Positions 64-59,540 of a stretch of DNA of 64,000 bases are shown one piece after another. Position numbers and translations under genes: made by a program. The stretch's first letter is position 1, and each line of letters begins with the position of its first letter. The notes below the pieces were generated by a model. The model did no database searches and was not told the origin of the DNA. It saw nothing but the letters and a program-made list of their open reading frames with translations. Source of the DNA: Pseudomonas phage HPP-Temi; sequence record PP968062.1. One strand, given 5' to 3'.

Positions 64-95
64 ATACTGCTCCCTACGGGGAGCTTTATGTCGTC
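64..95 (+). terminator. GC hairpin (gctccc-tacg-gggagc) plus TTTATGTCGTC flank; terminator / putative late-promoter composite 24 nt before the gene at 119
   Basis: Stem-loop 69-84 followed by the tttatgtcgtc motif shared with at least 20 other intergenic sites. Confidence 0.5.
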
Positions 96-118
96 ACAAT
101 CTTATAACACTAATTAAC

Positions 119-1135
119 ATGGAATTCATCATGTTCGGACAAGACGAAAATAATATCTGGTTAGAATACCCTAGTACTGGCTTTGAAGATATCGAAAACG
201 CGCGTAAAGTCGCTAACAGTTTGGATAGCCTGGCATTTAAGGTACGCAGTGCCCCTGTAGCGTCGCTGGAAGCATTTTGTATTGCTTTTAATGCCATCGT
301 AGGCGAAGACTTCAAACCCTCTAGAACGGTCTCTTTGGAGGGCTTTAGTGGGGCTCCGTCTCCTATGCATCATCTGGCTACTCGTATTACCCAACATAGT
401 AACAACATGCACGGAGCAATTAACCTTGCTTTAGAAGATTTCAACAAAGATGCTCTAGCTAAGTTTAAAGAAATCGTTGATGGTTATCGGAAAGCCCGTG
501 CTCAATTGGATCATGTGAAGACAGATCTTGAGCCTACTGATAGCGTCGTTAAGATCAATCACGAGCGCGTCTGGAAACTGTTTAACAAGAATAACAAATT
601 CGTTAAACCCGAATCCATTAAAGAAGATGTGATGGATGTTGGTAAGATCGTAGGTACTATCAAAGATGCAGCTGTTAGACTTAGCTCTGGTCGCCCTGTT
701 CAACTAGATCCCGCTAAGTACGAACTGATGATGAACACTTTCGTTGTGATTAAGGATAACTCCATTACGTTCGAGTCTCCTGAACCTCCGAAACCCAAAG
801 ACGAATACAGTGCTGGTGACATCGCTTGGATCGTTGGTTGGAGTGTCATGTTTAACGTTGTTGGTCTTATCGGTTCTCTGATTTTCAAGAAGAAGACTGC
901 TTCTGAAGCTGATCGGAAACGTGGCGTTAATGAAATGCTTGCTTTCATCAATACGATCAAAGGTTTCGATCGGAGTATCACTGAGATTGAAAGTGCAATC
1001 AAAGCACTACAGCAAACTGAAGAGAACAAAGAGATGTCAGCTATGCTGATCAATAGTGCTATCAAGCTTACCAAACATATCACAGACGTCACTTACGGTG
1101 CTGCTGTGTTGTTCACTAAGATTTCTAAGAGTTAA
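119..1135 (+). CDS. hypothetical protein, 338 aa, one predicted TM helix (IAWIVGWSVMFNVVGLIGSLIF)
   Basis: Long ORF, ATG start, followed by an intrinsic terminator. Confidence 0.6.
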   Translation: MEFIMFGQDENNIWLEYPSTGFEDIENARKVANSLDSLAFKVRSAPVASLEAFCIAFNAIVGEDFKPSRTVSLEGFSGAPSPMHHLATRITQHSNNMHGAINLALEDFNKDALAKFKEIVDGYRKARAQLDHVKTDLEPTDSVVKINHERVWKLFNKNNKFVKPESIKEDVMDVGKIVGTIKDAAVRLSSGRPVQLDPAKYELMMNTFVVIKDNSITFESPEPPKPKDEYSAGDIAWIVGWSVMFNVVGLIGSLIFKKKTASEADRKRGVNEMLAFINTIKGFDRSITEIESAIKALQQTEENKEMSAMLINSAIKLTKHITDVTYGAAVLFTKISKS

Positions 1136-1144
1136 AATATTAAT

Positions 1145-1175
1145 GGCGAGGTTTGGGCCTCGCCTTATTATTTCG
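1145..1175 (+). terminator. rho-independent terminator (ggcgagg...cctcgcc then TTATTATTT)
   Basis: Perfect 7-bp GC stem plus T-run directly after the stop at 1135. Confidence 0.7.
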
Positions 1176-1334
1176 TCATAGACTCTAAAGCAGGAATAAG
1201 GATTAAAGAGGTTTATAATTAGAATAAGGAAATACCTTCGGTATTGTTTATTACTAAATAAAACCCCCCTCCTCCGGAGGTACCTTTTCCTCGCTCTACA
1301 GATTTATTAAACACCCTAGTAAAACTTCTAAATC

Positions 1335-1385
1335 GATAAAAAAAAAATAAACTAAGTAAAGCCCTCTCCACAAGGAAGAGGGCAA
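1335..1385 (-). terminator. rho-independent terminator for gene 1392..1676 (gccctctcc-acaaggaa-gagagggc followed by a U10 run on the minus strand)
   Basis: Hairpin 1361-1383 with a long A-run on plus (U-run on minus), immediately after the stop. Confidence 0.7.
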
Positions 1386-1391
1386 TTGAGG

Positions 1392-56920: not shown

Positions 56921-56946
56921 TATTTACCTCTTGGCCTACGGCCTGG

Positions 56947-59058
56947 TTAAACACCAGGCGCGTACTTGAACTGCAACCCACGGCATTCCAGCAAGTGAGA
57001 CAGGAGTCCCACCGGACGGGAGTTACCGAACGGGATCTTAGAACGATCAACTGCCTTCTCGATGTTGGACGGCTGGTCCGCAGTCAGGATGGAGTTGATC
57101 ACAGCAACGTGAGCTTCTGGGTTGTTGGTTTGGTCCAGCAACTCTACGGTAGGCAATGCACCCACAGTACAGTTATAAGAACGAGTCTCGGATTCACCGA
57201 ACGAACGAATCGCGCTCTCACGACCAGGAGTACTGGAACGATCAGAGTTATTCAGCTTCGACGGTAGACCGAACTGTTGAGTCTTCACAGATGCTACAGC
57301 CGACCAGTCTTCACCGATCTTTTCCAGAAGCATCATGTAAAGCGGACCGAGCAACATTGGATCTTTGGTAGTCACCTCTTTGCCAGTCTGGTCACGATAC
57401 GTAACCGGAGCATATGTCGGACAGAACCGGGATTCCAGGATCTTGTTACTTGCAGTCGGCAGATGGACCGGATCGTCTACCGGAGAATACAAATAAGCAA
57501 ACCCGTCACGCAGAACGTGTGCTACGTGTTGAATAGGGTTCGGATGATCCTTAACCATTCCATGCATAGTCGGAGTGACGATTGCATAGAAGTCCAGCAG
57601 TTCATTGAATGCGTACTTAACGAAGTCAGCGTTGTTACGGATGTGGTTAACCACTGCATCCAGTTCATACGAACCATGACGCTCTAGCCCACATTCAATT
57701 CGGAGACGTTGAGCCAGATCGCGAGATGCTGCACCGAAACCATGTTCATAGATACGACCATAGTTAGAACGACGCATAGTCGAGCCGCCAAAGATAACAA
57801 CATCTGCAACGTTACCATTCACGTCACGAGGCATATCTGCTCGCTTCATGATCTTACAAACGACACCTTTTCCGCCATGAAAATCAGTAGCTTTATATGC
57901 ACCGCCCGGTTCTTTAATCGATTCATAGGTGATTTCAACACGCCATTCATCAAGTTGATCCAGTCGATACATACGTGTCAGCTTACGTTGACCTTCGGCT
58001 TGAGGCAGATAGATCATCGCTTCTACTACAAGTTGACGAAACTCCTCGGTCATATGGAGGCGATCTTTACGGCGGGCAGACAGACCTTTATATACCTTGA
58101 TGATCTCACGGTAATACGAAGCCAGGGCATCGTAGTACTTACGCAGTTGACCATCCATACCACTTGGAGTGAATGAAGGATTCTGGCGATCATCCCAATA
58201 CACTTTGATGTCTTTAATGATCGCACCTGGATCGCCAATTACAGCACGATCGAAAGTGCGGTCCAAAGTACGCAGTGCACGAGGAGTCATTTCAGCTGGA
58301 GACAGATCGTCATCAAGATCACGTACTGCGAAGATCACACCATCATCACGAATACGTTCACCAATATCCGGGAACAGTTTGATGTTGTTGTCATCACCGT
58401 ACATATTCAGGAAGAACGCTTTCTTACCAGCGCCACCAGTTGCAGTTGTGTAAGTGCGAGGAGCCATCTTCTCACGAAGGAACTCATCGCAGAAGACGAA
58501 ACCGTCCTCAATAGTACCAGGCATAGAACCGAACATTACAGTTGCGTTCACACCCATGCCCAGCAGACCGTTTTCTTTAACAGTAGTAGATTGAGCGATC
58601 ACAGTGTCCTTGGCGAACATCTCACCTACAGACAGATTATTCCATACGTCTTTCTGCTTCTCCAGTTTGAATCCGAAGTCCTGGTGGAAGCTGAGGTACT
58701 CAGGTACATGAATCACACCGATCCGTTTGAACTCGTCGTAGTACTCCTCGTACACGATCGTAGTCACGGGGTTATGACGAATGGAACCGTTACCTACACC
58801 AGTGGGATATTTACGGATTACGTTCAGTACCACACAGTCAGTTGGGAACCGAATGTCGAACGTATGTTCAGCGTAACGCATTTCAATGCCCGCCATTACC
58901 CGGCGAGGCTCGTTCCCTTCCACTACAGGCGATTGACCAATGTGGGACAACAGCATCGCGCCACGAGCAGCGGATGTGGTTCCGTAATACGGGTCAATTG
59001 CTGCGTGACCGAGCAACCTCAGGTTGATTTCACGGACAGCGTTTGCGAGACTTTGCAT
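56947..59058 (-). CDS. RNA polymerase beta-like subunit, C-terminal fragment, 703 aa
   Basis: [55 protein letters not shown] resembles RpoB [82 protein letters not shown] resembles [27 protein letters not shown]. Confidence 0.8.
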   Translation of the reverse strand: [703 protein letters not shown]

Positions 59059-59084
59059 CTATAACTCCTGTTGATTCGTTGGTG

Positions 59085-59125
59085 CAGAATGATTATATAG
59101 ATGTGAAAATTATTTTTTTGTAGGA
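59085..59125. promoter_or_regulatory. AT-rich, near-palindromic bidirectional promoter region (cATCTATATAATCAt / aTGATTATATAGATg) between the beta gene and a divergent small gene
   Basis: TATATAATCA on minus and TATATAGATG on plus, each about 35 nt from a start codon; resembles the TATATTAC class. Confidence 0.4.
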
Positions 59126-59132
59126 TTCCTCT

Positions 59133-59495
59133 ATGGCATTTACAATTATGGAACAGACTGACAATGGCGGAGCATCGATGTTTTATGATCCTGCCTTCCG
59201 TTTGATTGTCGAAACCCACATTAACATTCTTAGGAATATCAATGCCGTTAGAGTTGAGATCCCTAATGAACTGTACTGGCAGTACGAAGGGAACTTTTAC
59301 GGTTATCTAACTGAAATCGGCGTTGAGCCTGAACTCCATTGGATCTATTTGCGTGTTAATGGAATGGAGAATCCGAATCAGTTCGCTGCTGATGTACGTG
59401 ATCCTCTGGATAAAGCTTACAACAACGTTCTGATAAAACCGTCGAATAATGAGATTGGTGCGCTGCAACAGTTCTACACTAGTCGAAAATTTTAA
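59133..59495 (+). CDS. hypothetical protein, 120 aa
   Basis: ORF ending at a bidirectional hairpin. Confidence 0.5.
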   Translation: MAFTIMEQTDNGGASMFYDPAFRLIVETHINILRNINAVRVEIPNELYWQYEGNFYGYLTEIGVEPELHWIYLRVNGMENPNQFAADVRDPLDKAYNNVLIKPSNNEIGALQQFYTSRKF

Positions 59496-59497
59496 AG

Positions 59498-59540
59498 CTA
59501 AGGCAGGGGACCCGAAGGCCCCCTGCTTTATGCCGTCTTA
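59498..59540. terminator. bidirectional hairpin (caggggacc-cgaa-ggccccctg) with CTTTATGCCGTC
   Basis: Family member at a convergence point. Confidence 0.6.

Follow-up and report, generated by a model that had tools for sequence, protein, structure and literature searches.

We analysed a 64,000-nt window of Pseudomonas phage HPP-Temi (PP968062.1), in which a GC-rich hairpin followed by a tail containing TATG recurs between the genes. The whole window is collinear with phage PS119XW (genus Pawinskivirus) at 81-86% identity, and its first 12 kb are ~87% identical to the Pseudomonas jumbo phages PA1C and PS119XW. Against phiKZ the window shows inverted synteny, with 12.2-63.8 kb matching phiKZ 107.8-58.3 kb (~64-70% identity) and 1.3-10.1 kb matching phiKZ 12.6-4.7 kb (70-94% identity). 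Judged by these alignments, the phage is a phiKZ-like jumbo phage. The genes include those for head proteins (orthologues of gp84-gp101), a gp82-like DNA polymerase and, by synteny with phiKZ, the non-virion RNA polymerase (gp68 and gp71-74). An RNA_pol_Rpb2_6 domain was found in the protein of 56947-59058(-). The genome is thus phiKZ-like and encodes its own multisubunit RNA polymerases. Genes were mapped by codon usage, which gave 92% coding and agreed with the RefSeq annotation of PS119XW; the non-coding share of the window is 8.4%. A map of greedily chosen longest open reading frames (ORFs) placed TTG-initiated ORFs on the wrong strand at 4.7-10.9 kb and was replaced by the codon-usage map.

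An initial annotation, made from the sequence alone, described the hairpin element as an intrinsic terminator combined with a late promoter or transcription start site. We put the probability that the elements are phiKZ-type intrinsic terminators, serving the multisubunit RNA polymerases that the phage encodes, at roughly 85%. Structure, enrichment, intergenic placement, covariation, positional orthology and identity with a published motif form the basis from this analysis. Evidence that RNA 3' ends fall at the tail, and that the terminators act in reporters, comes from work on phiKZ (PMC10914365) and 201phi2-1 (PMC11512511), and the same 3'-end behaviour is expected in HPP-Temi by analogy with those two phages. 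On the same analogy, the TATG of the tail marks the ends of transcripts and not the starts of late ones.

Structure, number and placement of the elements

The recurrent element is real, and all 16 ranges given in the initial annotation hold the structure described there. In each of them a perfect or near-perfect GC-rich stem of 6-12 bp closes a loop of 3-6 nt (often UUCG, CGAA or UACG), and (T)TTATG(Y)(C)G(T) follows the hairpin on at least one strand (Table 1). Eleven copies were folded; their minimum free energies (MFE) range from -17 to -27 kcal/mol and their z-scores from -3.3 to -6.1. In most of these, a lower CAUA/UAUG stem is separated from the GC upper stem by a small internal loop.

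The element was counted per strand with a descriptor requiring a stem of 6 bp or more, 4 or more of them GC pairs, a loop of 3-7 nt and then TATG. This gave 26 strand-instances against 2.55 +/- 1.56 in 100 shuffles (maximum 8), and 23 of the 26 are intergenic. Perfect GC hairpins numbered 25 against 5.0 +/- 2.1 in shuffles, and CTTTATGYCG occurred 7 times where 0.30 were expected. The tail motif is not equally frequent inside coding sequence: intergenic DNA is ~27-fold denser in TATG[CT][CT]GT and ~100-fold denser in TTATG[CT]CG. The initial count of at least 20 copies holds only when strands are counted. By locus, there are 16 copies with a TATG tail and about six related hairpins (1145, 5982, 8014, 10327, 13300 and 54910) with U-rich tails that lack the G.

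Most copies lie 3-15 nt past a stop codon, and in most of them the motif follows the stem in the direction of transcription, as had been claimed for all. The exceptions to placement after a stop in that direction are the hairpin at 3750, with a tail antisense to both neighbouring genes, and those at 1722 and 1878 in a small-RNA region; at 1878-1920, moreover, TATG stands 11 nt off the stem. The next start codon was found 21-128 nt from the element, so the proposed spacing of 18-60 nt was too narrow. At convergent gene pairs the element is symmetric, as first described: both half-elements have the canonical form and adjoin the stop codons of their respective genes. The gene map had taken one tail ATG (18368) as a start codon. 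This was rejected, as the PS119XW annotation and a phiKZ start site put the start ~39 nt downstream.

The tails read UU(U)AUG(Y) and do not contain the run of at least 5-8 U of bacterial intrinsic terminators. A generic terminator scan requiring 5 T in 8 detected only some of the copies. Rfam and tRNA scans of the window gave no known RNA family or tRNA overlapping the elements.

Table 1. Hairpin elements and an associated promoter-like motif in the HPP-Temi window.
Feature	Coordinates	Strand	Hairpin and tail	phiKZ counterpart and remarks
Terminator	64..95	+	Hairpin 69-84 (GCTCCC-uacg-GGGAGC), tail TTTATGTCGTC; MFE -17.6, z -5.0	Upstream ACATA pairs with tail UAUGU; between + gene ending at 61 and + gene 119-1135
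Two-faced terminator	1713..1758	both	Hairpin 1722-1749; - tail TATGTCGTC, U-rich + tail AATCTTTTC	T004 (3' end 12168, phiKZ - strand, equal to window + strand)
Terminator	1878..1920	+	Hairpin 1878-1903, longer tail ATTTCCTTTTTATGCCG; TATG 11 nt past stem	T003 (3' end 12011, - strand); ends candidate ~135-nt small RNA
Hairpin	3748..3786	+	Hairpin 3750-3773, canonical tail TTATGCCGTT on + strand only	Tail antisense to the - genes on either side; likely the end of a short + strand RNA with its start near 3651
Terminator	11935..11972	-	12-bp stem, tail (GGC)TTTATGTCG	Between tandem - genes
Terminator	18363..18400	both	Hairpin 18372-18393; sense (-) tail TTTATGCCGG, + tail GATATGTTGT	T046 (3' end 101370)
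Separate late-promoter-like motif	18354..18362	-	GATCTTATG, 12 nt downstream of terminator tail; predicted start G 18354	Conserved with P054
Terminator	22214..22250	-	GACGGGGCUC-uucg-GAGUCCCGUC, tail TTATGTT	T044 (3' end 97650); stem near-identical
Palindromic terminator	24940..24973	both	CATAAAGCCCTCC-ttcg-GGAGGGCTTTTATG; TATG tail on each strand	Second AAATTCTATG 17 nt downstream, - strand
Terminator	26262..26298	-	Hairpin 26273-26288, tail TTTATGCTATG	Terminator TATG plus immediate second, late-promoter-like GCTATG
Terminator	29012..29052	both	Hairpin 29024-29043; - tail TTTATGCTATG, + tail GATATGACGTC	Position and layout as hairpin upstream of P049
Bidirectional terminator, convergent genes	37003..37040	both	CGGCATAAA-GCCCGGC-loop-GCCGGGC-AATATGTCG; MFE -26.9, z -6.1	Flanks abutted by both stop codons
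Bidirectional terminator, convergent genes	44432..44469	both		Compensatory stem changes against PS119XW, tails the same
Terminator	45157..45193	both	Sense (-) tail TTATGCCGTC, + tail GTTATGTTT	
Bidirectional terminator	51676..51731	both	+ tail TATATGTCGTCTTAC; - tail GTATGCC, then T10 run	T036 (3' end 71395)
Terminator	53324..53358	both	Sense (-) tail TTATGCC, + tail (CT)ATGTTT	
Terminator	59498..59540	+	One stem mismatch; canonical tail CTTTATGCCGTC; - tail non-canonical	No complementary upstream flank
Related terminator without G	1145..1177	+	Hairpin, then TTATTATTTCGTC	
Related terminator	5968..6001	-	U-rich tail TTTTTATTTTTAT; TTTAT core, no G	
Related terminator	13288..13321	-	Tail TTTTTATTTAGG	

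Conservation of stems, flanks and tails

The CATAAAG flank upstream of the hairpin is the reverse complement of the tail. It is mostly the tail of the opposite strand, and many copies are therefore bidirectional. An apparent CGT(C/T)(A) extension of the tail is partly explained by the stop codons that adjoin the element at convergent gene pairs, since TTA and TCA are the reverse complements of stop codons. Five tails (59503+, 3750+, 1722-, 11947- and 1878+) have no complementary upstream flank, and hence the tail is selected for itself and not just for base pairing.

Comparison with PS119XW revealed compensatory stem changes. At 44441 the stem GCCCGGC/GCCGGGC of the window is CCCCACC/GGTGGGG in PS119XW, and at 51697 GCCCTCTCC/GGAGAGGGC is replaced by GCTCCTACC/GGTAGGAGC. 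In these alignments the loops vary freely and the tails are unchanged. Among the window, PS119XW and phiKZ, stems covary and tails are fixed; orthologous phiKZ stems are sometimes entirely different (18372 against T046) with the same flanks. A covariance model of the phiKZ terminators with mapped 3' ends was dropped, as MAFFT left unlike stems out of register.

A pattern search of IMG/VR for the palindromic core gave 34 loci, most of them on contigs of 188-317 kb. At the positions that the pattern left free, the tail continues with Y in 66 of 68, Y in 57 of 68, G/T in 55 of 68 and T in 43 of 68 cases. The extended tail is therefore conserved across many jumbo phages.

The same 13-mer, CTTGGGCGAAAAG, also precedes two different terminator hairpins by 23-35 nt, at 1686-1698 and 3726-3738 (+).

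RNA 3' ends at the phiKZ counterparts

Oxford Nanopore (ONT)-cappable-seq of phiKZ gave 133 termination sites, 61 of which carry the motif BCCYCCCCHWWDGGGRRGGBYTTATKYYGT (Putzeys et al. 2024, microLife, PMC10914365). Phage 201phi2-1 has a similar terminator motif A (plus a motif B). When its terminators were assayed between two reporters in the uninfected host, those whose stems are elongated proved strongest (PMC11512511). The window copies combine a GC-rich stem-loop of ~6-10 bp, a TTAT-K-YYGT tail directly after the stem and an intergenic position just past a stop codon. By this sequence match, the element is the published phiKZ terminator motif (PMC10914365). The class is already known from phiKZ and 201phi2-1, and the copies in the window are new members in a related phage.

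To anchor the window copies, we used the start-site and termination-site tables of bioRxiv 10.1101/2023.10.13.562163, with their coordinates placed on the phiKZ sequence. Five copies (1722, 1878, 18372, 22222 and 51697) are positional orthologues of mapped phiKZ terminators, with the 3' ends listed in Table 1, and the copy at 29024 corresponds to the phiKZ hairpin upstream of start site P049. The terminator half of the initial description is supported by the published motif and by these mapped ends. In the first 150 kb of phiKZ, 19 of 20 RNA 3' ends at hairpin-plus-TATG termination sites fall between -1 and +3 from the G of the tail: 6 at -1, 6 at +1, 6 at +2 and 1 at +3, which is 3-8 nt past the stem.

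At phiKZ T001, T016 and T052 the 3' ends lie at sibling terminators in which TTTAT is followed by T-runs without a G. Because such siblings (5982, 13300 and 1145 in the window; T001 and T016 in phiKZ) have TTTAT plus T-runs, the invariant core of the tail is TTAT, as Putzeys et al. wrote, and the G is frequent and not obligatory. A further hairpin, 54910-54931 (-), has the non-canonical tail TTCCCCTCGTTGATTTTTTATGG and stands between a helicase-like and an RNA polymerase beta'-like gene. T033 is its conserved counterpart in phiKZ, with a 3' end mapped 13 nt past the stem. The hairpin may belong to another class of terminators, or it may act as an attenuator in front of the helicase gene.

Tails and transcription start sites

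The initial annotation was right that the late promoter of phiKZ contains TATG. Its G is +1; the motif is required but does not suffice, no further conservation was reported, and downstream sequence affects the activity of the late promoter P119L (PMC4666361). The polymerase subunit gp123 binds the non-template TATG sequence-specifically, with the G at +1 (PMC12809450).

We applied the same hairpin-plus-TATG descriptor to phiKZ 1-150 kb and compared the tails with the 79 start sites mapped there. None of the 54 tails had a start site on the same strand within 3 nt. Ten of them had one 6-58 nt downstream, and the promoters there were early (4), middle (2) and late (4). Of 126 start-site upstream sequences inspected, none ended at a hairpin and its first TATG. 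Late start sites that abut a terminator in phiKZ use a second TATG. In P049 (...CCCTTATGCTATG) the start site, 94330, is 6 nt past the G of the tail; in P075 the second TATG is in ...GGCTTTATAATGCTATG; and in P054 (GATCTTATG) the start site, 101390, is 21 nt past the tail G. No hairpin lies upstream of P119L, the reference late promoter of the in vitro and cryo-EM studies.

The window keeps such separate late TATG layouts. They are GATCTTATG at 18354-18362(-) and, at 29013-29023(-) and 26262-26272(-), the second TATG within TTTATGCTATG; further AT-rich ...TTCTATG motifs were found at 23677-23736 and 24898-24971. The window tails share the TATG motif with late promoters. However, with phiKZ as proxy for the window, transcription does not start at the G of the tail, and positions -5 to -25 hold a GC hairpin in place of hairpin-free AT-rich DNA. 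The GC stem ends 0-3 nt before TATG, whereas P119L and the listed late promoters have no hairpin abutting the start. Because phiKZ tails lack start sites, a second TATG is used and P119L is hairpin-free, we regard the element, by analogy, as a terminator that often has a distinct promoter downstream of it, and not as a terminator fused to a start site. The late-promoter half of the initial proposal was thus not upheld.

Early-promoter-like motifs were also seen. Exact TATATTAC, the core of the phiKZ early-promoter consensus, occurs in three intergenic gaps, at 10274-10281(-), 11441-11448(-) and 52680-52687(-), each time with a ...TTTAAA/TTTGAAA-like stretch upstream. The site at 10274 lies 45 nt past a terminator hairpin, in the terminator-then-early-promoter layout found in phiKZ. 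By itself, the 8-mer shows no enrichment in the window.

Proposed mechanism and alternative readings

In the proposed mechanism, a GC-rich RNA hairpin would form just past the stop codon, and the short U-rich UUUAUG(Y), with its weak rU-rich hybrid UUUAU(G), would stand in for the long bacterial U-tract. Release would take place around the G, so that transcripts end within ~2 nt of it, and Y-Y/C-G-T would be the DNA that directly follows the point of release. Once the RNA is free, its upstream CAUA(AA) is predicted to pair with the 3'-terminal (UU)UAUG, giving an almost blunt end that may resist exonucleases. Promoters of any class would follow as separate motifs 6-60 nt downstream, in compact terminator-promoter junctions. 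At the DNA level most copies are palindromic, (CG)RCATAWW-[hairpin]-WWTATGY(CG), and one site would therefore terminate transcription from both strands. Two-way insulators of this kind are sensible for a polymerase with a 4-mer promoter that is frequent on both strands. The initial annotation took the conservation outside the stem as a sign of protein recognition. That is reasonable, and the most economical reader would be the phage RNA polymerase itself during termination.

Several points weigh against the terminator reading. All 3'-end evidence comes from phiKZ and 201phi2-1 and not from this phage, and ONT 3' ends alone cannot tell termination from processing. The canonical tail at 3750 faces a strand without an annotated gene, and several sense-strand tails are non-canonical (59503 -, 8014 and 54910). 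A plain model of hairpin and U-tract also leaves the fixed A and G of the tail unexplained.

TATG itself might be a sequence-specific pause or termination signal for the phage non-virion polymerase, a reading that we consider unlikely. The pocket of gp123 (beta-lobe) that reads non-template TATG at promoters would capture it in elongation as well and keep the active site at the U/G step during hairpin formation. It is likewise doubtful that the short U-tract is compensated in this way and that one four-base signal means start at AT-rich sites and stop after a GC hairpin. The binding of non-template TATG by gp123 with the G at +1 (PMC12809450) speaks for this idea. So do the clustering of phiKZ 3' ends at -1, +1 and +2 around the G and the conservation of the tail independently of RNA pairing and across many jumbo-phage contigs. 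Multisubunit polymerases reportedly also share an elemental-pause pattern, Y(-1)G(+1), said to have been described by Larson and by Vvedenskaya in 2014, and UAU followed by G would fit it. On the other hand, the G-less siblings with T-runs (phiKZ T001, T016 and T052) also give 3' ends, and ends 3-8 nt past the stem are expected of any intrinsic terminator. In a rough test of whether TATG tails belong to late or middle units and U-rich tails to early ones, in which promoter class was taken from the nearest upstream phiKZ start site (a noisy proxy), tail type showed no clear association with it. The terminators of 201phi2-1 work with the host polymerase in a reporter (PMC11512511), and a literature search turned up no paper linking the terminator tail to the TATG pocket. 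The G-less siblings, the generic distance from hairpin to end and the activity with host polymerase argue that TATG recognition is not required in termination.

A role of the element mainly in RNA processing or stability, or as the target of a dimeric protein that binds DNA or RNA, in place of polymerase release, is very improbable. Its extended palindrome and conserved 2x2 internal loop resemble a protein-recognition hairpin, the ONT ends fit processing as well as termination, and the predicted blunt 3' helix would stabilise RNA. However, the related elements of 201phi2-1 terminate transcription between two reporters in uninfected cells (PMC11512511). The hairpin, the U-rich tail and a 3' end 3-8 nt past the stem have the geometry of intrinsic termination, and one-sided copies keep the tail without the palindrome.

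A fused terminator and late promoter, in which the non-virion polymerase initiates at the G of the tail so that one transcript ends where the next starts, is very improbable. It draws on TATG as the necessary late-promoter element (PMC4666361) bound by gp123 (PMC12809450), on three gaps (22201-22248, 11906-11978 and 62-118) that hold no TATG except that of the tail, and on the dependence of P119L on downstream sequence, the tail having conserved downstream bases. Against it stand the start-site counts given above, the use of a second TATG at P049, P075 and P054, and the AT-rich, hairpin-free upstream DNA of P119L, with TATG necessary but not sufficient. In addition, phiKZ has no start site at T044, the orthologue of 22222, so gp96 would be transcribed by read-through. 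Tails also occur on strands without a downstream gene, and sibling terminators have T in place of G after TTTAT. Finally, a mobile palindromic repeat, like repetitive extragenic palindromes (REP) or miniature inverted-repeat transposable elements (MITE), was ruled out because stems differ among copies and positions are orthologous between distant genomes that are 65-70% identical.

With the elements read as terminators, the copies provide a map of transcription units for HPP-Temi, with operon ends, bidirectional insulators, the distinct late and early promoter motifs found downstream of them and two candidate small RNAs. They also bear on what specifies the phiKZ non-virion polymerase beyond a 4-bp motif (PMC4666361, PMC12809450), as this TATG hardly varies in the termination zone either and YYGT is conserved after it. 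Capture of TATG by the gp123 pocket, if true, would explain how phage polymerases terminate with almost no U-tract. If the polymerase does not read TATG in elongation, the element is an ordinary instance of the published terminator family.

Candidate small RNAs and other features of the window

Two candidate small RNAs lie beside the terminators. The first, ~135 nt at ~1753-1915 (+), is placed between the terminators 1722-1749 and 1878-1903, and in phiKZ the unit is bounded by the 3' ends T004 and T003. A sigma70-like TTTTCA-16-TG-TATAAT at 1753-1780 precedes it. The unit is 98% identical to PS119XW, compared with 92.5% for the neighbouring gene, and it had no Rfam match. The second is at 3641-3782 (+), on the strand antisense to both flanking genes. 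Here the late-promoter-like TTGATAGTATG (compare phiKZ P067, ...TTGATAGTATG) stands ~125 nt upstream of a canonical terminator, and the 160-nt gap is 90% identical to PS119XW, compared with 84% for the flanking genes. A small or antisense RNA is possible at this position.

Window 1340-3622 is 89-94% identical to phiKZ, compared with only 64-70% for most of the window. This suggests a recent exchange of a module, the gp22-gp24.x region with the candidate small RNA, between phage genera. The gp82-like DNA polymerase gene is split by a group I intron at 43446-43781 (+) (Rfam RF00028, 59.2 bits) and a preceding HNH_3/NUMOD1 endonuclease ORF at 42142-43497; homology resumes at 43842. In phiKZ there is no insertion at the DNA polymerase position matching the intron and endonuclease of 42142-43781.

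Comparison with known systems

The pause and termination signal of class II for T7 RNA polymerase offers an analogy only, that of a phage polymerase recognising a short sequence at termination. T7 polymerase is a single-subunit enzyme, its class II signal needs no hairpin, and the two have no sequence similarity. A paper on phage AR9 contained no terminator sequences useful as an outgroup.

Like bacterial Rho-independent terminators, the element has a GC hairpin, a U-rich stretch and a 3' end a few nt past the stem, and its upstream A-rich flank gives both directions. Unlike them, it has a U-tract of only UUU or UU, interrupted by an invariant A that is usually followed by G, and a sequence-specific downstream extension. 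Its reader would also differ, being the non-canonical phage polymerases without alpha and omega subunits.

With the phiKZ late promoter (Yakunina 2015, de Martin Garrido 2024/2026) the tail shares the same TATG, and late-promoter-like TATGs lie 5-40 nt downstream of several window terminators. Mapped late promoters, in contrast, have AT-rich upstream DNA and no GC hairpin, and they show no conservation past TATG, where the window tail has a conserved YYGT.

The closest systems are the terminators of phiKZ and 201phi2-1. They have the same GC-rich stem, usually of CCCTCCC/GGGAGGG type, the tetraloop-like loop and the TTAT-K-YYGT tail, and they too are placed after stop codons and are often bidirectional between convergent genes. 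As consulted here, the two reports (PMC10914365, PMC11512511) call the tail the 'TTAT region' and do not discuss its overlap with the late-promoter TATG or the palindromic CATA flank, except that stem elongation by motif B strengthens termination. Compared with phiKZ, the window elements come from a Pawinskivirus-like phage that is ~65-70% identical over most of the window, and their tail is slightly tighter (TATG-Y-C-G-T).

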